A stretch of 20,747 bases of DNA from a virus: the UHGV virus genome UHGV-0017034; one strand, given 5' to 3'. Both the position numbers and the translations under genes were made by a program. Numbering within the stretch: the stretch's first letter is position 1; each line of letters starts with the position of its first letter. This document shows positions 1,608-20,089 of the stretch, one piece after another. The notes below the pieces were generated by a model, which worked only from the letters and a program-made list of their open reading frames with translations, was not told the DNA's origin and ran no database searches.

Positions 1608-4600
1608 TTACCCTAATTTAGCTTCAATTGCAGCAAGACGTTCACGAAGAAGTTTATTTTCTTCGCTCATTTCTTGGACCGCTTTAATTAAAAGCGCGTT
1701 CACTGCGGAGTTTGAAATTGTTAAAATTTCTTCTGGGTTATCAAAACCACCAATTTTTGCGGTTTTAACAGCTTCCGGTAATACCTCTTGTAAATCCTGT
1801 GCGATAATACCAATCTCATGACCTATAACTTCTCGGTCATTAAGAGATTTAACTTTATCGTAGGTTTTAACTTTGAGTTTATTTACCTTATCCACCGCAT
1901 TTTCTTCGTAATCTTCAACATTAATTTTCAGACGACGATCGGAACGAATATAAACATCGTTAAAGTTTCCGTTACCAGTGGCATGAAATTCTCCACTTGC
2001 ATGGAATTGATAATCAGCACCCTGAACATGAAGAACCGCTGCCGCAGTATTATTACTATCACCGGGACAATGAACGTCCATAGCAGCGATGTAGTTACGC
2101 CCCCAATCAACCGCTTTCCAAATAGCATGAGCACTATCAACGCTTTGTTGACAGTCAACCAACAAACCAGCAGGTCGGTCTCTCCATGCAACATATGCAC
2201 CACCAGAAACCTCACCACGGATAAGTCCTTGATCTGCGGCATAAGGAACACGCCCTTCCAGTTTAATCATCGCGCCCTGGAAGTGATGTGTAAATTGTCC
2301 ACCGTGGTTATTGCGAATATGTAAAATACCCTCATCTGTAGCCCAGATAACAGCCTTTTCCGTATCGCTATCATCTCTAAACCAGACGTGGCGAGCACCA
2401 GCAGAGTTTTTGATAGTAATCCCGGAAGGTCCATGCACAGTAAAAGCGCCAGCAACATCAAACATCAAACTGTTATCTGTCCTACGTTCAGTATAGAAGT
2501 GATAACCTTTGGAATCACCGACTTCCATCACTGCCGCGCGACCAACTTCTGAATTTCCCCAATTATTAATAGAGAATCGTTCAGAGCTATTATTCATCTG
2601 ATTTAGGTATAATGTACCATCAGTGAATGTTTCGCCAAAGAATCTGGTTTTAACGCCGTTAGTACCCCCCACGCGTTCAAATTCAGCCAAGAAACCTTTG
2701 GAATCTCGCATACTCAAAACGTTATTGCGTCCTGTATTACTGTTACCCCAATGGATTAATTCAATATAGTCCATTGACTGACGAGACCCTGATCTAAACA
2801 CCATATTATCTTCGATGCGGGTGCTACCATCAATTCCCAGATGTAAACAGCGTGCGGTAGCTGTGCCACCTAGATCTAATCCACCTTCGGCGAAATCATA
2901 ACTAAATGGTCTACGAGTGTTCCACGTCCCAAAGGAATCTTTTAAATCGGTAGTAAGAATATGGAAGCTAGAACCATCATTACGAAGGATTAAACCATAG
3001 TTACCACCTTTGACAGCCAAACGAGCATTTTCAGATAATGCCACTTCGCTATTCATTACAATTTTCTGGCCTCTACCGCCAGTAATATGTAATTCACCGT
3101 CTTCAATCAGGTTTATAGAGTTTTGACCGTTGTCGTTCCACCAAATAAAATCTTTGGTCTGACCATCACCGAAGCCAAACCAGCCATTACGAACATCTTG
3201 TCCAGTGCGATAATCCATGAAATTAAAATGACTTGATTCGTTTGGTCCTCGACGAATATCAATACCAGAATTTCCAGTAACACCGCCATCCAATGTTAAT
3301 TTCTTGACATGTAACCCGGATGTTGCTGACAGCAATAATTCCTGATTTGTATCTTCGTATCCAGTAGCAAGACGATATGCGTTATCATCAACTGTCTCAT
3401 GCCAGATTGTAGCTGGTGCACAACTACGGAAGCGACGCAACATCTTTTTAGCATTTGTCGGTTGTTCGTTCAAATGCTCAATGTCATATTGGCCTTGATG
3501 ATTGCCAGCAAAATTTAATGTTCCACGGTTGCTAAAGTTATTGAACGATGAAATGTTAAGAGCATCAAAAATTTCGTCTGCAACAGGTTTTTCACCACCC
3601 AGATATTCAGGAGTATCCAACAGGTTTAAAGAAACACCACCGGAAGAAACTTGATATTCTGCTAAAACAAATCCTGTATGTGCACCGTAGTAAGCGTAAA
3701 GATCGTAATTGTCGCCATCGGTTGGAATAGCGCAAAAATGTTGTTCATAATGCCAAATAGTATAATACGCATTGAATACAACACCTTTCGGGCTATTGTT
3801 GCCGCATCGAATCACCAATTCGATAATATTGGCTTGTCCATTATGTCCTACGTTATAACCGTTACCACCAACCAAACGGATCTTAGCCGTGCGACCGTGT
3901 TGTTGTGGCATTGTCAAAGTGCCTAGTTTAAACCAACCACCCTCGATACCAAAATTAAGCGTCTTCTGGAACAGTCGGTCAATTTCTGCTTTCGAATATG
4001 CGCCAATTTCAGCCGGAGTAGGTTTATCACCTTCATGATACATGCGGTGAGAATATGCCAAATGTCCCAATTCATCATAGCCGTATGTTCTTACCGTATG
4101 AACCGGATTAGACCCATAAGTGAACTCAAAACCACGAGCATGATTAACGCCGGATGGGTGCGGAACATGCAAGATCATTGCAATATGACCCGCCAGGTCA
4201 TTCATGCGGAATGCACCAAAGTAGTCAAGATTACGCGCACTCGGATCATCAAAATAGTTTGCGGTCTTAGACAGCAAATAACCATCAGTGTAAGTGTTTA
4301 CGTGCTTTTTGATGTACTTGCCATCACTCGATCCATCGGCTGCATCAATACGGCTTTCTAAACGTGCCAGTTCGGAATCAGTGTAAGACTTGTTATTGTC
4401 AACTTTGCTATGAATTGCTGTATTTTTGGCTTCAACATCACGGGTTAATGCTGCGACGTTATCCGCTGCCTCTTGCTTATTGGCTGCAATCACACCAGTA
4501 AGGTTATTGTAGGTGTCAGTTAACTGATTTTCCGCATAGGCGTGATTTGCTGCGATAGTGCGGTCAGTTTCTGCCTTAATCAAATCAACTTTGTCATTGA

Positions 4601-11077: not shown

Positions 11078-12982
11078 TTAGAACGATGTTATCCAGCTAC
11101 GGCCTCTATTTGGACGTCTGACGATGTTTTGACGTTGTGGTCGTGTGATTGGCTTAGTTTCTTCTATTTGCTCGTTAGATTGCGATTTAGGAGCTTTTAC
11201 GGGTTCTTCGACAACACGGTTTAAGCTGTCTTTCATTGCAATGAGTTTATCCCATGACATTTTTGAAAGAACGTAGCGAGAAGCCGCTGTAGCATACACT
11301 GCGCAGTCGAGCGCCTCGTTCCTAACGCCTGGGTTCTTTACCCATCTCACGCCAGTAGTAGTACGCTTGACAGATTCACTTAAAAGCTGATCGAGATAAT
11401 CATCAGGAACGGTTCCTGATATTTCTAAGCTAATGTGAGGATTGTCTTTCAGGTTTCTAACCAACATTTCACGAAATGCAGTTTTACCCACGTTAACACC
11501 CAACATAAGCAATTCATGACCACCTGTGCGGGTAGGTTTAACCGGAATGATCGGAGCGTTACCAGCAGAACTACCTTTGATAGCGTGTAAGTTCTTCCAC
11601 TTGCCGCAAATACGGTATCCAGCTTGAGTGAATCGACCGTTCGATGTATCAAGGAAGCTGGCGAGCATAGGAACACGATCACCCGATACAGTAGTAAATT
11701 TGGTTTTATGGAAGTTGATTAATCTATCCCATACAGGGGATTCATATCGTTCACAGTTATGATCGTAAAAGCTGCGATGATCCAGAATATAAATCTTATC
11801 CTTTGCCACGCCCATGATTGTAGTTTCTGCGCGATCTAATTGCTGGTCAGTACCCGCACACAAGAAAATCACGTCATCAGGGATATTCTCGATAGAAACA
11901 TCTGTTTTTAGTTGTTCCAGTTCATTTGCTTCTACTGCCGTGTCCTGATCGTCGTATACCTTGCCTAACACGGTGTTATAAAATGATTGTAAATCAAAGG
12001 ATTGCCACGCATGACTAAAATCAACCACACAAGCGCGGATCGTGCTGAAAGGTGAATACAGACGGCTGATCCAGAATCCTGCTACCTCACTTTCACGGGT
12101 TGCTCTCCACTCTCCTTGTGCCACCGCCCTGATCCGCTCTCCTTCTGTCCATGCGTTCTTACAGTGGGGGCAAATATAACGAGCGGTATCAGGATCGGGT
12201 AAGTTCTTACCATCAATGTTACGCCATTCAAACTGTACGTTTTCCCACTCGATCACCTGGTGTCTACCGCAATGAGGACACGGAACAAAAAACATACGCA
12301 TATCGCTTGATAACCATTGCTGGTTAATGCTTCCGAGCTTACTGGTCGGGGTACTGGATACGACTAATCGGCCTTCATCGCCAAAGGTAGTTAAACGGTT
12401 AGCAGCCAGTGCCACCGGATCACCTTCTTCTGAGGCTGTAGCAGCATCGATTTCGTCAAGCAGTCCGACCTTTGCTGTCTTACCGCGTAGGGTTGATGGA
12501 CTAGTAAGCGATACCATATAAAGGAAGTGGTTTGATTTGAGCTGGAGCTGATTGTTGTTATTAACAGAATTGCGATCATTCTTGTCTGTAACCACGTCTT
12601 TTAATGCATCACATGCTTCGATAGACGGTCGGATCTTACCCGCGAGATATTGAGACATTTCTTTAGCGGTTGATTGTCCGATAATCATATTGCATGGATC
12701 GTTAGCCATCTGGTTAAATAGGATGCCGTTCAAGATGGTAGTCTTTCCGATCTGCGCACTGGTCATCAGAACATACTTTTTCTTGTTCTCAAGGAAAGGA
12801 GCATCAATCATACCTTTCTGGAATGACAGCAATTTAACTTTATCCCCAGCTTGAGGACCATCTACCAGCACCATATTCGCTTCGCACCATTCAGAAGGAA
12901 GGAGCTTAGGCGGTGGCGTAATATATTTGGCTGCATTTTTGAGAATCTTTTTTAATTTGGCCTTATTTGAAATCAGTTTCAT
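11078..12982 (-). CDS. terL: Terminase large subunit, lambda GpA family (634 aa)
   Basis: Walker A-like [10 protein letters not shown]; motifs matching lambda gpA as recalled ([11 protein letters not shown] vs LTAGIDSQLDR; [11 protein letters not shown] vs RRNEALDCFVYA; CPHCG...YICPHC zinc-finger-like pairs); GAGGGT RBS. Confidence 0.9.
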
Positions 12983-13067: not shown

Positions 13068-13670
13068 ATGCTAATTAATCAGCAACAAAGAGATGAATTA
13101 GAATTAGCCTTGTCTTGTACCGATCATGAATATCGTTTACCAGTTAAGCATAAGCATTTAAAAACCGACTACACTACATCTGGCTTTAGTCGTGAGGAAG
13201 CGAAAGAGATTTTAATAGAATTTTACCGCGATAATGGTTATACAGACGTTCACAACTTCTTTAAGAAGCATAGAACATCACATACAGAGTTTCGGAGAGT
13301 CCGAGATTGGTTTGATTTTGATATCAAGCGTTATTATCGAGTGGATGACGGTCCTATCTATCGGTTGCAGTGGAAGCCGATCCGAGAAGTGTTGAAACAG
13401 AAGAGATTGAATCACGCAATTACACGCTATCGTAACGAGGCTTTCAAGAAAGGCTATGGTGATACAAGGGAACTATTCGTTGAACTCGCTAACGTGCGTT
13501 ATAGCCACTATTACAACGATCCTAAAGGGTTCTTTGAAGTGCTTCGCAAGGTTGATATAAGTCGGGGTACATACTATTCACGGTTGAAGAAGTACGGGAT
13601 TAAGGCAGAGTTCTTTATGAGTATTGACGATGGAGAACTTTTTCCGATAAAATGTAAGTCCTCTAAATAA
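13068..13670 (+). CDS. Basic DNA-binding-like protein (200 aa) with a C-terminal HTH motif
   Basis: AAGGGGG RBS 4 nt upstream; C-terminal [16 protein letters not shown] resembles the HTH of the two small paralogs at 13705 and 17159; divergent from terL. Confidence 0.55.
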
Positions 13671-13704
13671 AGGTGAACATTCACTTTAATTTGGAGAAAT
13701 GACT

Positions 13705-13932
13705 ATGACTACTAAAGCTACTCGCGGTCGTCCTGCCCGTTTTAACGCTGAACAGATGGCTGATATTGCCTACGCTTACTATACAGCGGATCGTGGTAAG
13801 GAAGCGAAAGAACAGATTCTTAGTGAACATGGGATCTCAATCGCCCAATTCTATAAGAATATGAAGAAGTTAGACATTAAATTCTATGTTCAGATCGGTG
13901 ATGGTCAGATCGTAGAAGCAACAGGTTTTTGA
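13705..13932 (+). CDS. Small HTH protein (75 aa), paralog of the 17159-17338 product
   Basis: N-terminal ATRGRPARF; HGISIAQFYKNMKKLDIK HTH-like motif; GGAG RBS is correctly spaced for the ATG at 13705 rather than 13699. Confidence 0.55.
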   Translation: MTTKATRGRPARFNAEQMADIAYAYYTADRGKEAKEQILSEHGISIAQFYKNMKKLDIKFYVQIGDGQIVEATGF

Positions 13933-15893: not shown

Positions 15894-16085
15894 AGTGGAA
15901 ATCCTCTAAAAGAAAGTGAATCAAGTAAGTTCACTATTATTTATAACGAGAATTTTTTATCTATTTGGAAGTGATTGGATTCAGTCGGGCTAAAGCCCTC
16001 CTTCATATATTTGATTAAATCATCATCAAAACGAAGAAGTATCTTTAGAATATAAGAATCTTTCTTTTGGAGAAATTATAATCAG

Positions 16086-16350
16086 GAAGCAATTTAGCAA
16101 CCGAAGGTTGCAATCCCGAAGGGATACCAATACCTTTCTAGAAAGTGATTGTTACTCACTTCGTTCGTTTACTAGAATCAGTTAGTAACTAGTATTAAAT
16201 CCCTTTCTAAGAAAATCCTTTCAAAAGCGAGTGAACGCCGTAGGCGTGAACGTGAGCGAAGCGAACTATCCAATCCCTTTCGAATCCTGCTTGCAGGTCT
16301 TAGAAGGTGTTGATGGGCGCTTCGCGCACGGCTACGCCGTATTCTTTTTG
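16086..16350 (+). ncRNA. Candidate structured noncoding RNA (hairpin-dense, ORF-free, ends at a terminator)
   Basis: Hairpins GCAACC-GAA-GGTTGC (16097-16111), ATCCC-GAA-GGGAT (16113-16125), palindrome CTTTCTAGAAAG (16134-16145), AGTGA/TCACT, ACGCC-GTA-GGCGT, CCTGC-TT-GCAGG; stops in all frames; weak TATAAT at ~16074; 5' end uncertain. Confidence 0.3.
16317..16350 (+). terminator. Rho-independent terminator (plus strand) with tandem hairpins
   Basis: GCGC-UUC-GCGC then ACGGC-UAC-GCCGU followed by AUUCUUUUUG; no protein-coding gene upstream on this strand. Confidence 0.6.
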
Positions 16351-16471
16351 CGAGATCTTTCTTGAACGTAGTGAGAGAAAACGAGCAAAAAGGAGAACGT
16401 TAGTTCGAATTTTATATTCTATGGTCTGTGGGGTGAAATGTCTTTCAAGATCATACACTTATGAGATTGAA

Positions 16472-16593
16472 GTGTAGGGTTAGTGTAGGTGTGTAGGTTT
16501 CATAGTGTAGGTTTGAGGGTGTTATAGTGTAGGTTTACTGACTAGTGTAGTGTAGGCCAATCCCTTTAAAGCGTAGGTTTGTAGTGTAGGTTT
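16472..16593. repeat. Iteron array: about 9 copies of GTGTAGG(TTT)
   Basis: Copies start at 16472, 16483, 16491, 16505, 16527, 16550, 16584, with a variant GCGTAGGTTT at 16571 and a half-site at 16545; spacing often 11 or 22-23 bp; flanked by an AT-rich tract (16594-16700). Confidence 0.7.
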
Positions 16594-16698
16594 TTCATCA
16601 AAAATTTTGATAGAAAATTCTTGTATATTATTTAACCGGAAAATCACCAAAAATCGCTGTAAATGCATGATTTAAAAAGAATTATCAAAAGGTCGCCG

Positions 16699-16707
16699 TG
16701 CTATAAT
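16699..16707 (+). promoter_or_regulatory. Extended -10 promoter element TGCTATAAT
   Basis: TG-n-TATAAT perfect match; -35 weak. Confidence 0.35.
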
Positions 16708-16787
16708 AGGTTATAAAGGTTGATAATCGTTATCCGCCATTTTCACACAAAAATTTTGATAGTCATTTCTCGCTTAGGTCAAGTGCA

Positions 16788-16816
16788 TTGACAACTGTCA
16801 AGGATTATTTTATACT
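16788..16816 (+). promoter_or_regulatory. Sigma70 consensus promoter TTGACA-17-TATACT with overlapping palindrome TTGACA-AC-TGTCAA
   Basis: -35 at 16788-16793, -10 at 16811-16816, exact 17-bp spacer; GTCAAGTGC 9-mer at 16778-16786 shared with the 15358 region. Confidence 0.6.
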
Positions 16817-17158
16817 TTTTCTCATTGGTAGGGGTTGAAATTTTCGAAACAATCCCCATATTGATGATAAACAAGATTTTTTCGTGTATAAATACATGCA
16901 TGAAATGATTGTTCACTTCTGAAAATCCCCTGATTCACTGTTAACACACACAGCACTGGTTAAACACACAGTGCCTTTTCGATTGAATAATGTACGAATT
17001 GATTAATTATTAATCTTCTCTTTAGCAATTCGTGCTCCCGCTGATCAGATATACAGTGGTTTTGCAGGGTTTTCTGAAATGACTTTTATAAATAGAAGTA
17101 TCGAGGGCGAAAAGCTCTTTTTATTGTCCTTATTAATCCACATTTGAGGAATCTACTT

Positions 17159-17338
17159 ATGGCTAGACCTGTTAAGTTTACTCGTGAAATGATTGTTGAT
17201 ATTGCTAAACGCTTTTATGGCGATACTGAACGAGGCGGCGAGAATTTCTTTAAGAAGGAAGGAATTGATAGAAGCGGATTCTATAAGCTAATGAAGAAAT
17301 ACGAAATTCAGATAAAGATTAACGTTCAAGTTTGTTAA
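17159..17338 (+). CDS. Small HTH protein (59 aa), paralog of the 13705-13932 product
   Basis: GAGGAA RBS 9 nt upstream of ATG 17159 (the track ORF begins at a TTG at 17144); MARPVKFTREMIVDIAKRFY...GIDRSGFYKLMKKYEIQ parallels the other paralog. Confidence 0.55.
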   Translation: MARPVKFTREMIVDIAKRFYGDTERGGENFFKKEGIDRSGFYKLMKKYEIQIKINVQVC

Positions 17339-17379: not shown

Positions 17380-17409
17380 AAGCCTCCCTTGTTGCAGCAA
17401 AGGAGGCTT
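17380..17409. promoter_or_regulatory. Long hairpin between the small HTH gene and the 333-aa gene; terminator-like only in minus orientation
   Basis: AAGCCUCC...GGAGGCUU with inner UUGC/GCAA pairing; plus-strand A-run upstream gives a U-tract only on the minus strand. Confidence 0.4.
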
Positions 17410-17454: not shown

Positions 17455-18456
17455 ATGAAAAATTCTAAGCGCATCACCTTCAACCTGTTTATTAAATCCA
17501 ACGGCAAACTGAACATTACCGTCATGGAAGGTAAAGCAAGCAAACAAGACAAATCCTTTGAAGTAGTATCCGGTAAGACTCTGACCGAAATGCGTCAGAA
17601 TGCTGGCATCAAAGACGGTGCTGAATGGCAGATCACTAACCGTTTCGACAAACGTCACGTTAAACCTACACTGGTAGAAGGTGAATCCGTTTATTGCTTC
17701 GCTCGTGCTGTTAAAGCCGATGAAACTTACTATCTCGCTGTTGTTAAAACTGCTTCCGGCTTCCGTGCTGTAATGCATCACAAGAGCAAGCGTAACGAAT
17801 ACGGCGTAGAGACCCAGGAAGTCGCAAAACGCTTCCGTACTGTTGCTACCGAATCCACTGTAAAGGATGTTTCTGGTACTGTTAACACCGTTAAAGGCGG
17901 TTCCTTCTACAACCACGCATTACAGGTTACTTCCTCCTTCTTCTGCAAAAAAGAAGCACAGAAAGAAGTTGCTCCGGTAGTAGTTGAAGAAGTTAAAGAA
18001 GAAGTTGCAGTGGTTGAATCTTCCGAAGTTGAAGCACTGAAAGCACGCATTGCTGAACTGGAAGCTGAAAACGCATCTCTGAAAGCTGAACTGGCAGCAC
18101 AGGAAACCACTTTCGAAGTAGCAGCGGTTGAAGTTGAAGCAGTTGAAGAAAAATCCATTGATGAAGAACTGGAAGAACTCCTTAACTATCGCTGGGGTAA
18201 CGGTGAAAAAGTAGAACAGGAAGAACAGAAAGAAGCTGATCCGGTAGTAGTTCCGGTTGAAGAAAAATCCGCACCTGTTACTAACTTTGAATCCCTGCGC
18301 AATAACTTTATGGCTAAATTCAAAACCACTTGGGAAGATACCGAAGAAGAACAAGAAGAGATTGAAGTAAACGAAGACGAGATCCGCGAAGCACAGATGG
18401 CACTGCATGACGCTATCTACGACACCAACTACAGCGCCTACGCATACGCAGCTTAA
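17455..18456 (+). CDS. Hypothetical abundant protein (333 aa): N-terminal globular domain plus acidic Glu/Val/Ala-rich coiled coil
   Basis: AGGAG RBS; codon usage visibly different from neighbours (CGT, CTG, GGT, TCC, ACC, GAA, AAA, TTC, TAC preferred), typical of highly expressed E. coli-type genes; leucine-zipper-like EALKARIAELEAENASLKAELAA. Confidence 0.8.
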   Translation: MKNSKRITFNLFIKSNGKLNITVMEGKASKQDKSFEVVSGKTLTEMRQNAGIKDGAEWQITNRFDKRHVKPTLVEGESVYCFARAVKADETYYLAVVKTASGFRAVMHHKSKRNEYGVETQEVAKRFRTVATESTVKDVSGTVNTVKGGSFYNHALQVTSSFFCKKEAQKEVAPVVVEEVKEEVAVVESSEVEALKARIAELEAENASLKAELAAQETTFEVAAVEVEAVEEKSIDEELEELLNYRWGNGEKVEQEEQKEADPVVVPVEEKSAPVTNFESLRNNFMAKFKTTWEDTEEEQEEIEVNEDEIREAQMALHDAIYDTNYSAYAYAA

Positions 18457-18471
18457 TAGAGGGGTGAATCT

Positions 18472-18714
18472 ATGATGAATCAAAACAAAGAATTTCTGGG
18501 TAATCTGATGTTAGAAATTACCAAAATGAAAGAAAGAATGGTAGCGATGGAATCAGAGATTAAAACACTTAAAGCTGATAATAAGGCGTTGAGAAAGTCC
18601 TTAAAGCTGATTGATGAGACTAATGCGGTTATGATGGATCATGTATTCCCTGAGTGGCGAAATGAAACTAAACCTACACAACATAAGAAACTTACACTTC
18701 GAATTGTTGCATAA
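18472..18714 (+). CDS. Small coiled-coil protein (80 aa)
   Basis: GAGGGG RBS; heptad-like MKERMVAMESEIKTLKADNKALRKSLKLI; starts 16 nt after the upstream stop. Confidence 0.55.
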   Translation: MMNQNKEFLGNLMLEITKMKERMVAMESEIKTLKADNKALRKSLKLIDETNAVMMDHVFPEWRNETKPTQHKKLTLRIVA

Positions 18715-19426: not shown

Positions 19427-19978
19427 TTAAGACACATCAAATTCATCGTCTTCTTCTGGTTCTTGTTCCGGTTCATCCATTAATGGTAATTCTTCTTCCT
19501 CGTCTTCTCCCAAATCTGCATTTTCGAACAAGTCCCCTACTTCATTTAAACGACGCTCGATAATCTCTCTTAGCTTATTCTTCAATGTTTTCTGGTCATT
19601 GGCAGATTCGAGAATTTCTAGGGCATCGATTGTGGCGATCTGCAAAATAGTCTGCTTCACTTTCCCGCAATATTCCGCTAGCTCCTGCTCCACATACCCG
19701 ACGGGAATCAGGAGATTCATCGCTTCCTGGTTCTCTCGTTCGGCTGCATCTGCTAATGCTCTCTCACGGCGTAATTTCTCTACGTCGATTTGTTCCTTGA
19801 CAGTAGTTTCTTTAAGCGGGTTGATGATATTTTTCAAGACCCATTCTGTTCCTTCTTTGGCTGGCACGCGGCGGGTATTGGTATTAAATGGCATTCCTCG
19901 TTCTTGCCATTTCTTAGCGGCGTTAATTGTATAGCCGTATAAACGGGAAATTTCTGTAAGGGTTAATTCTTCTTTCAT
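19427..19978 (-). CDS. terS: Terminase small subunit, lambda Nu1-like (183 aa from the RBS-supported start)
   Basis: LTLTEISRLYGYTINAAKKWQERGMPF parallels the lambda Nu1 N-terminal HTH (IFGASIRTIQNWQEQGMPV as recalled); acidic C-terminal tail; GGAGGA sits 8 nt upstream of Met-6 (19978), while the first ATG at 19993 has no SD. Confidence 0.65.
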   Translation of the reverse strand: MKEELTLTEISRLYGYTINAAKKWQERGMPFNTNTRRVPAKEGTEWVLKNIINPLKETTVKEQIDVEKLRRERALADAAERENQEAMNLLIPVGYVEQELAEYCGKVKQTILQIATIDALEILESANDQKTLKNKLREIIERRLNEVGDLFENADLGEDEEEELPLMDEPEQEPEEDDEFDVS

Positions 19979-20089
19979 CCGGTTATCCTCCATTAAATTT
20001 GCGTAAAATTATTTATCTGATCTGCGCATTCAGGAGAGCGCCTAAAACGCTTTATAACGAAGGGAAAGATCGAGGCATGGAAAGGGATT

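Follow-up and report, generated by a model that had tools for sequence, protein, structure and literature searches.

Exchangeable direct-repeat arrays in an Escherichia coli prophage family co-vary with the N-domain of a predicted cognate binding protein

An array of short direct repeats and the gene of its predicted binding protein were examined in a 20,747-nt stretch of viral DNA (UHGV virus genome UHGV-0017034, hereafter the window), which is part of a ~37-kb prophage of Escherichia coli. The array lies in an open reading frame (ORF)-free stretch of 1265 bp (15894-17158), in agreement with the ~1.25 kb given in a preliminary description made from the letters of the window; only two GTG-start ORFs (52 and 56 aa) occur there, and RefSeq copies carry no annotation. 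Nine direct repeats of the unit (TA)GTGTAGG(TTT), in extended form TAGTGTAGGTTT, occupy 16468-16593 on the + strand. They are followed by an AT-rich block, a strong promoter, a structured leader and three rightward genes, the second of which encodes a 333-aa protein, here termed protein A (17455-18456, + strand). Among related loci this array is exchanged for others of different sequence, each of which goes with its own variant of protein A.

Seven of the nine repeats are exact copies of GTGTAGG (16472, 16483, 16491, 16505, 16527, 16550 and 16584) and two carry one mismatch (GTGTAGT at 16545; GCGTAGG at 16571, where other arrays of this type read GTGTAGG). All are on the + strand, and the 'about nine copies' originally reported are therefore accounted for. 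The heptamer is found nine times in the whole window, against a mean of 1.24 and a maximum of 5 in dinucleotide-preserving shuffles, none of which (0/100) reached nine. The only copies outside the array are inverted (- strand), one within the 333-aa gene (17665-17671) and one within an 80-aa gene (18673-18679); both are kept in relatives carrying the same array type, and they could serve in looping or handcuffing, or else be there by chance. The start-to-start gaps between repeats are 11, 8, 14, 22, 23, 21 and 13 bp, and Tandem Repeats Finder reports a 22-bp period across 16481-16536. The helical phasing proposed earlier stands in part: the array is periodic and its gaps include 11 and 22-23 bp, but the best fit is near 11.2 bp and not 10.5 bp (R=0.84, seven exact copies). 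Phasing of this strength was matched by 1.3% of random sets when periods of 10.0-11.5 bp were scanned, and it is weaker when all nine copies are used (8%). The GC skew over the array region (16300-16599) is +0.40.

Protein A consists of a variable N-domain, a coiled coil, an acidic region and a conserved C-terminal motif, and ends in ...NYSAYAYAA. The same order is found in all A proteins (313-366 aa). Its N-domain (~170 aa) comprises three beta strands, two helices and four beta strands, with a basic motif, GFRAVMHHKSKRN. N-domains of different types are beyond BLAST recognition of one another, yet they share motifs, e.g. G(F/L)R..M.H(K/R)S(K/R)RN and a terminal G..F...FF. The C-terminal halves align across types at 30% identity and share the motif LHDxxYxTNY/F. 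On this comparison the A proteins are chimeric, with a variable N-domain joined to a conserved C-terminal half. The last dipeptide is -AA in 6 of 7 sequence variants (YAA, RAA, FAA, KAA, LAA), the C-terminal ends being AYAYAA (window, 18430-18456), LLDFAA, IRKAA, GLDLAA, VLKAA and VRRAA. Sequence searches with the 333-aa protein, the second proteins of the other types and an N-domain profile returned only 'hypothetical' proteins of Enterobacterales, the N-domain search finding six proteins among 1.84 billion representatives. Pfam and PHROGs gave coiled-coil noise only, with no NTPase or other known domain, and the PDB sequences gave nothing.

Related loci were fetched with the conserved 152-aa protein of the prophage, yielding 20 viral and 13 metagenome contigs, to which loci from E. 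coli, Salmonella and Providencia were added. A pattern scan of viral contigs for the repeat itself produced mostly unrelated chance matches and three true relatives only, and a search of genome contigs with the 152-aa protein found no match. In ~35 related loci the ORF-free region carries, at the same position, one of six array types: T1, that of the window (7-9 copies); T2 (TTTCAGGGGCAAAAAT, 6-9 copies); T3 ((A)CGGGGA(T), 13 copies); T4 (TTAGTGCAGGG, 5-6 copies); T5 (TGGAATCTTGGGGATTT, 5 copies at 21-23 bp); and T6 (CTTGTACAT, 13 TGTACA cores in four clusters). All six are unidirectional and, together with the Providencia array, are periodic at 10.35-11.25 bp (empirical p 0.002-0.013). An alignment of the types shows conservation over the left third of the region and again to the right from 16596, with ~16355-16595 as a swappable cassette. 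Foreign sites occur within some arrays. T2 arrays (in one locus at intergenic positions 820-940) contain one T5-like unit, TGGAATCTAGGGGATTT, and 1-3 copies of GTGTAGG, of which one falls between the -35 and -10 of a promoter (TTGACA-17-TATAAT); such sites are either scars of recombination or sites of cross-talk between phage types. Moreover, a second motif, AATCCCTTT, i.e. AAT(A/C)CCTTT, occurs four times in the window (16129, 16198, 16272 and 16559), the last time inside the GTGTAGG array, and a similar motif is present within the long gap of the T5 array.

A closer inspection of which genes travel with which array revealed no discordant pair of array type and A variant in the ~35 sequenced loci and six types. 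In complete E. coli genomes the whole T1 module was present in 16 and the T2 protein in 35. Other genes behave differently. The 59-aa gene, which lies between the array and the A gene, occurs in at least four alleles without any fixed pairing to array type, and the window's own allele is found with both T1 and T2. The alleles of the small and large terminase subunits (TerS, TerL), of Rha and of the 77-, 200-, 110- and 152-aa proteins likewise assort independently of array type, TerS being 96-100% identical between T1 and T2 phages. The linkage of array and protein A is therefore kept by selection and is not mere adjacency. Recombination has split the partners' neighbours but never the partners, which indicates a functional, sequence-specific interaction. 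The co-variation is also graded: a Providencia A protein with an N-domain 66% identical retains 8 exact GTGTAGG copies whilst the spacers and flanks have diverged, E. coli relatives of T1 keep the repeats with diverged spacers, and an N-domain 46% identical pairs with GTGCAGG. The repeats are thus maintained under selection in the related genomes, where their loss would have spoken against a role. Taken together, the sequence comparisons tie array type to the N-domain of A alone, and make the 333-aa protein the predicted cognate binder, presumably by direct contact. It had been one of several candidates, together with the small helix-turn-helix (HTH) paralogs and the Rha-like protein; perfect co-variation favours the 333-aa protein, and independent assortment excludes the HTH paralogs, Rha and TerS as specificity partners.

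The repeats abut an AT-rich block (16594-16787), a candidate unwinding element. GC content is 0.30-0.34 across 16450-16899, and a 50-bp window among the least stable of the region (16586-16636) directly adjoins the array, confirming the AT-rich tract noted previously. The iteron-like architecture also described at the outset, with roughly phased direct repeats of a protein-binding type beside an AT-rich block, is therefore upheld. A block of the 16594-16787 type follows the arrays of T1, T3, T5 and one T2 variant, and in T6 repeats are found on both sides of it. Two copies of CAAAAATTTTGATAG (16599 and 16748, - strand), each one mismatch from the integration host factor (IHF) consensus, lie within the block, as does an extended -10-like sequence, TGCTATAAT, near 16694-16702. 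The DnaA-box-like 9-mers that had been reported did not survive scrutiny as evidence for an origin. TTATCCGCC at 16730 has two mismatches to TTATCCACA and reads TTATTTGCC in relatives, whilst TAATCCACA at 17133 has one mismatch and lies in the 5′ untranslated region of the 59-aa gene, downstream of the leader terminator and upstream of the ribosome-binding site. The region holds 6 sites with at most one mismatch to the DnaA box, against ~2.6 expected from the window-wide density, but the matches are weak and show no conservation, and were rejected as origin evidence.

Downstream of the block, a sigma-70 promoter, P_R (TTGACA-17-TATACT, 16788-16816, + strand, 11/12 consensus matches), drives the 59-aa, 333-aa and 80-aa genes. 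A perfect palindrome, TTGACAACTGTCAA (16788-16801), overlaps its -35 element, and the core TTGACA-NN-TGTCAA is kept in all array types. As it is identical irrespective of type, P_R is likely to be under the control of another, conserved protein: probably a dimeric regulator, perhaps the 59-, 77- or 200-aa paralog, which would govern the early rightward operon through the palindrome. The transcript would begin with a structured leader of ~335 nt (16823-17158, + strand; fold z-score -3.4 against shuffles) that ends in an intrinsic terminator (17103-17127, AGAGCG-loop-CGCTCT-T5), ~30 nt upstream of where the 59-aa gene begins. This terminator is conserved in the E. coli, Salmonella and Providencia relatives and suggests attenuation or antitermination control of the operon encoding the predicted array-binding protein. 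A further strong 12-bp hairpin is located between the 59-aa and 333-aa genes (17380-17409); it scores as a terminator on the - strand only, which implies either antisense transcription over the 333-aa and 80-aa genes or an element of mRNA processing or stability.

Protein A is thus the second gene of an operon that starts from a consensus promoter with an operator on its -35, behind a terminator, and its gene lies ~870 bp from the array. This is the position of an early lytic gene and not of a lysogenic repressor. The first gene product, p59 (59 aa, 17159-17338, + strand, at least four alleles), belongs to a set of three paralogous small proteins that also includes those of 200 aa (13068-13670), in which the motif occurs twice, and 77 aa (13699-13932); none of the three matched Pfam, PHROG or PDB entries. 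It is probably a Cro-like regulator, and on the allele comparison it is not the specificity partner of the array. The third product, p80 (80 aa, 18472-18714, + strand), is a coiled-coil protein found only alongside type-1 arrays. Its only Pfam signal is a weak coiled-coil match to YabA below the cutoff (E 0.005), and its tail reads ...KKLTLRIVA (18690-18714). T3, T5 and T6 add instead a protein B of 286-333 aa, whose tail, ...RPTLRLVA, resembles the end of p80; companion proteins in general, p80 included, end in -TLR(L/I)VA. By analogy with the known ClpX C-motif 1, the ssrA-like C-termini of A and its companions suggest possible ClpXP degrons and rapid turnover.

The prophage itself splits ycdX in strain UTME-9, where it carries a 559-aa large serine recombinase; other family members are integrated in hicB. 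The window is 99.3% identical to strains FDAARGOS_946 and O55:H7 DEC5A. Of 5426 complete E. coli genomes, 63 contain the 6-kb stretch around the array, in each case on the chromosome; all 65-66 places in these genomes are chromosomal, and no match was found in 72,556 plasmids. Overall the family is present in ~1% of complete E. coli genomes, enterotoxigenic (ETEC), Shiga toxin-producing (STEC) and O55:H7 strains included, and also in Shigella, Salmonella and Providencia. Some strains are polylysogenic. UTME-9 harbours, besides the type-1 member in ycdX, one of type 2 at another place, and E. coli BS74R-D has two family prophages (in ycdX and hicB) with identical A proteins and T2 arrays, the 77-aa, 200-aa, Rha and TerL alleles being different. 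One copy appears to be decaying: in E. coli ETEC1739 (2595-3591) a frameshift splits the 333-aa gene into ORFs of 177 and 146 aa, with the array intact. A megablast search of the region against phages and plasmids gave no match, and the literature on prophages in ycdX yielded nothing relevant.

The proteins of the early region and of the left end were searched against Pfam and PHROGs, and the remainder of the 37-kb prophage was read from its RefSeq annotation. No replication, partition or CI-type family was seen in either set, apart from the Rha/Ant-family protein, and the genes from TerL to the tail are labelled by RefSeq as virion proteins or 'hypothetical'. TerL (11078-12982) is of the lambda gpA (cos) type, with its nearest relative among deposited phages only 45% identical, and TerS (19427-19993) lies 6.4 kb away, the two terminase genes being separated by early and regulatory genes. 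One further record contains related genes: Escherichia phage DCP80 (PQ671644), a Straboviridae record with T4-type genes (endonuclease II, RNA ligase 1, ndd), also holds a lambda gpA-type TerL and a portal and capsid block syntenic with this prophage, and represents either a chimeric genome or a mis-assembly.

Left of the array, the ORF-free region divides into a conserved part (15894-16354, + strand), with GC hairpins, a PeSL-like promoter element and a terminator-like hairpin, and a type-specific segment (16355-16467) that belongs to the swapped cassette, conservation breaking at ~16355. A promoter scan gave weak matches on the - strand at 16444-16416 and 16437-16409. A series of small, GC-rich hairpins extends over 15975-16350 (e.g. 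GGGCTAAAGCCC, GCAACCGAAGGTTGC, ATCCCGAAGGGAT, ACGCCGTAGGCGT and GCGCTTCGCGC) and has a terminator-like end, with a T-run, at 16328-16350. Relatives retain these hairpins with altered stems and loops (GGCTTCGCC, TGCAGCTTCGCTGCA), and in the distantly related DCP80 record the 1.2 kb upstream of the TerL gene is similarly rich in hairpins. The run may be a small RNA or a structured leader; searches of the region with Rfam (gathering and permissive thresholds) and for tRNA and tmRNA found nothing meaningful. Within it, an 85-bp segment (16002-16087) shows 76-85% identity to unannotated intergenic repeats of RB49-like T4 phages (Krischvirus: RB49, Phi1, JSE, JK32 and others). From their sequence these repeats look like the published PeSL cassettes, in which a sigma-70-like promoter with an AT-rich upstream region and a stem-loop is repeated in intergenic regions (PMC2839356). 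A temperate prophage and virulent T4-type phages appear to have a mobile regulatory element in common.

What, then, does the pair do? By analogy with lambda ori/O, we would give an even chance to the proposal that the array and protein A are an iteron-type replication origin and its initiator. Protein A would oligomerise via its coiled coil and fill the same-direction repeats, spaced by ~11 or 22 bp, from about the same side of the helix, so that a nucleoprotein complex forms beside the easily melted AT-rich block (16594-16787). This complex would be the phage replication origin: the variable N-domain of the initiator, A, would read the repeats, and its conserved C-terminal half (coiled coil and LHDxxYxTNY/F) would recruit a conserved host or phage partner. 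A and p80 would be made from the early rightward operon (promoter at 16788), behind the terminator-ended structured leader, and A and its companion would undergo rapid ClpXP turnover via their -AA and -LVA ends, as for lambda O. An unrecognised initiator must exist, given that no known replication family was found in the scanned proteins or RefSeq annotation, and A is the largest unassigned early protein; we infer that the A-array complex initiates replication. It had been remarked that no Rep, ParA/ParM or obvious initiator gene adjoins the array. This is correct in that no known family was found, but the gene of a predicted cognate protein lies ~870 bp downstream. The co-residence in BS74R-D of two prophages with identical A and T2 array argues that A is not an immunity determinant. 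Origin and operator roles would not be exclusive, since Rep proteins commonly autoregulate through iterons.

A wider proposal, which we hold more tentatively and think somewhat less probable than its opposite, is that A founds a new class of phage initiators, which would read DNA through an unrecognised fold, oligomerise through a coiled coil, end in an ssrA-like degron and work without a helicase, primase or loader partner. The class would have at least six swappable specificities, each with a phased array upstream of a shared unwinding element. As single T1-like and T5-like sites are embedded in T2 arrays, the origin of one phage may be cross-activated or cross-repressed by a relative that shares or superinfects its host.

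Several observations weigh against an origin, and all of them fit the chief competing explanation, in which the array is an operator through which A regulates the divergent early operons (leftward, the 152-aa, 110-aa and Rha genes; and/or rightward, the 59-aa, A and 80-aa genes). A would then be an autoregulator, a switch protein or a prophage repressor, comparable to the Mu repressor or to mycobacteriophage stoperator systems. The fold search with A found no match and no similarity to Rep, O or DnaA-type initiators, and no helicase, primase or loader partner was found for it. Moreover, the region contains no perfect DnaA box and no good conserved one, and the AT-rich block is absent from the common T2 variant and from T4, where promoters or other sequence follow the array. 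Repeats come close to the operon promoter in three types: in T6 three of them abut the -35 and two are in the leader, in T4 the distance from one repeat to the -35, which is downstream of it, is 20 bp, and the T2 array stops ~45 bp from a promoter, the spacer of which holds a T1-type site. The array also sits between divergent transcription units, the plan of A (N-domain, coiled coil, -AA tail) resembles that of the Mu repressor, and at least six specificity types among genomes otherwise 90-100% identical are more typical of immunity regions. On the other hand, the T1, T3 and T5 arrays end ~195 bp upstream of the -35 and place no repeat over a strong promoter, and the type-independent palindrome over the -35 assigns the operon promoter to another conserved protein. 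A is encoded second in a terminator-gated operon ~870 bp away, and not as a divergent first gene beside its sites, and a simple repressor needs no conserved C-terminal motif for binding a partner. The BS74R-D lysogen tells against an operator for immunity too, but is a single case in which gene conversion could have homogenised the module. With these arguments set against one another, we consider the operator unlikely, though a serious contender to the origin.

The shared orientation of the repeats raises the question of whether they are read as RNA or single-stranded DNA. The array would then lie in a long leader and A would bind its G-rich repeats to control read-through at the terminator, in the manner of N at nut, TRAP, or HutP on UAG triplets. 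The repeats have one orientation relative to the operon across all types, and of the six motifs only that of T6 (CTTGTACAT) is not G-rich on the + strand; the GC skew over 16300-16599 is +0.40, and the T1 units contain UAGUGUAG. A rightward PeSL-like promoter lies upstream and a conserved terminator precedes the 59-aa gene. However, the hairpin at 16328-16350 would stand between that upstream promoter and the array, transcripts from the main operon promoter start downstream of the array and so lack the repeats, and a periodicity of 10.35-11.25 bp is a property of duplex DNA; with only four independent types, the shared orientation itself has p ~0.125. We regard recognition of RNA as very unlikely. 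Even less probable is the partition centromere suggested in the preliminary description, in which A would be the centromere-binding adaptor for segregating or anchoring the phage in an extrachromosomal form. Phased ~11-bp direct repeats do resemble R1 parC and tubC, and coiled-coil DNA-binding proteins such as KfrA assist plasmid segregation, but no ParA, ParM or TubZ-type NTPase was found in the scanned early-region and left-end proteins or the RefSeq annotation; a large serine recombinase integrates the element, which was chromosomal in every genome that carries it, with none in plasmids. A packaging signal, finally, would make the repeats cosB- or pac-like sites for TerS. The region does lie between the TerS and TerL genes, TerL is of the cos type, and lambda cosB and P1 pac contain repeated sites. 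Since TerS is nearly identical with T1 and T2, and TerL alleles assort independently, neither terminase subunit supplies the type specificity; the site sequence does not co-vary with TerS, and we rejected a terminase site as having next to no likelihood.

Whichever role is correct, a specific protein is tied to a specific DNA array by six swaps of specificity that occur in nature and by one graded change, from GTGTAGG to GTGCAGG at 46% protein identity. The array/A pairs are a ready panel for working out the recognition code of a DNA-binding domain without known homologue. An origin would make them a new family of initiators with a new set of orthogonal origin/initiator pairs, and an operator would make A a new phage switch protein. 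The interest of the system lies in an orphan DNA-reading domain carried by a widespread E. coli prophage in which no known replication family was recognised, and as the comparative evidence now links a protein to the array, the question has become directly testable.

Lastly, we compared the module with the closest known systems. In lambda, ori consists of iterons with an adjacent AT-rich tract, and O builds the O-some (PMC7466680). The present module is like the ori/O pairs of lambdoid phages (lambda, Stx phages, P22) in having several sites of the same type beside an AT-rich tract, specificity pairs that differ between related phages, and a predicted initiator gene that follows a cro-like gene in an early rightward operon. 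In lambdoid O proteins the N-terminal half varies and reads the DNA, whereas the C-terminal half is conserved and binds the partner; A likewise joins a variable N-domain to a conserved C-terminal half, for which these roles are predicted. Lambda O is an unstable ClpXP substrate, to which the ssrA-like -AA end of A may correspond. Unlike O, to which it has no similarity in sequence or fold, A is encoded ~870 bp from an array that lies upstream of the operon, whereas the lambdoid sites are inside the initiator gene. The repeats here are short, asymmetric and direct (7-17 bp) and number 7-13, against 4-6 inverted-repeat iterons of 19 bp, and there is no P-like helicase loader.

In the origins of SaPI and P4 elements, iterons of 6-8 bp flank or adjoin an AT-rich region and the specificity of initiator and iteron matches element by element. 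Short-repeat arrays by an AT-rich region are likewise seen here, and the T6 repeats flank the block on both sides; the initiators of those elements (Rep, alpha) carry helicase or primase domains, however, and A has no NTPase or known domain. The iteron plasmids (pSC101, R6K, P1 RepA) offer a ~22-bp repeat spacing, comparable to that of T5 (22, 23, 21) and of a T1 subset (22, 22, 23, 21), as well as an adjacent AT-rich region, IHF-like sites and possible autoregulation via near-promoter sites. They differ in that this locus has no winged-helix, Rep_3-type initiator and no conserved DnaA box, and that the prophage is integrated and never found as a plasmid. The Mu repressor combines an N-terminal DNA-binding domain, a leucine zipper or coiled coil and a ClpXP-sensitive tail with ~9 asymmetric repeats in O1-O3, an IHF site and divergent operons. 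The domain plan, repeat number, IHF-like sites and divergent operons recur in our system, but the A gene is neither adjacent nor divergent to the sites, the T1, T3 and T5 repeats are off the early promoter, and there is no sequence similarity. R1 parC/ParR and tubC/TubR share phased direct repeats of ~11-12 bp that can lie near a promoter; here, by contrast, neither a partner NTPase nor a plasmid state was found, and the predicted binder is a coiled-coil protein of 313-366 aa and not a small ribbon-helix-helix or winged-helix-turn-helix one. The array and protein A are thus a specificity module of a known sort, either iteron and initiator or operator and regulator, but a member of no known family.

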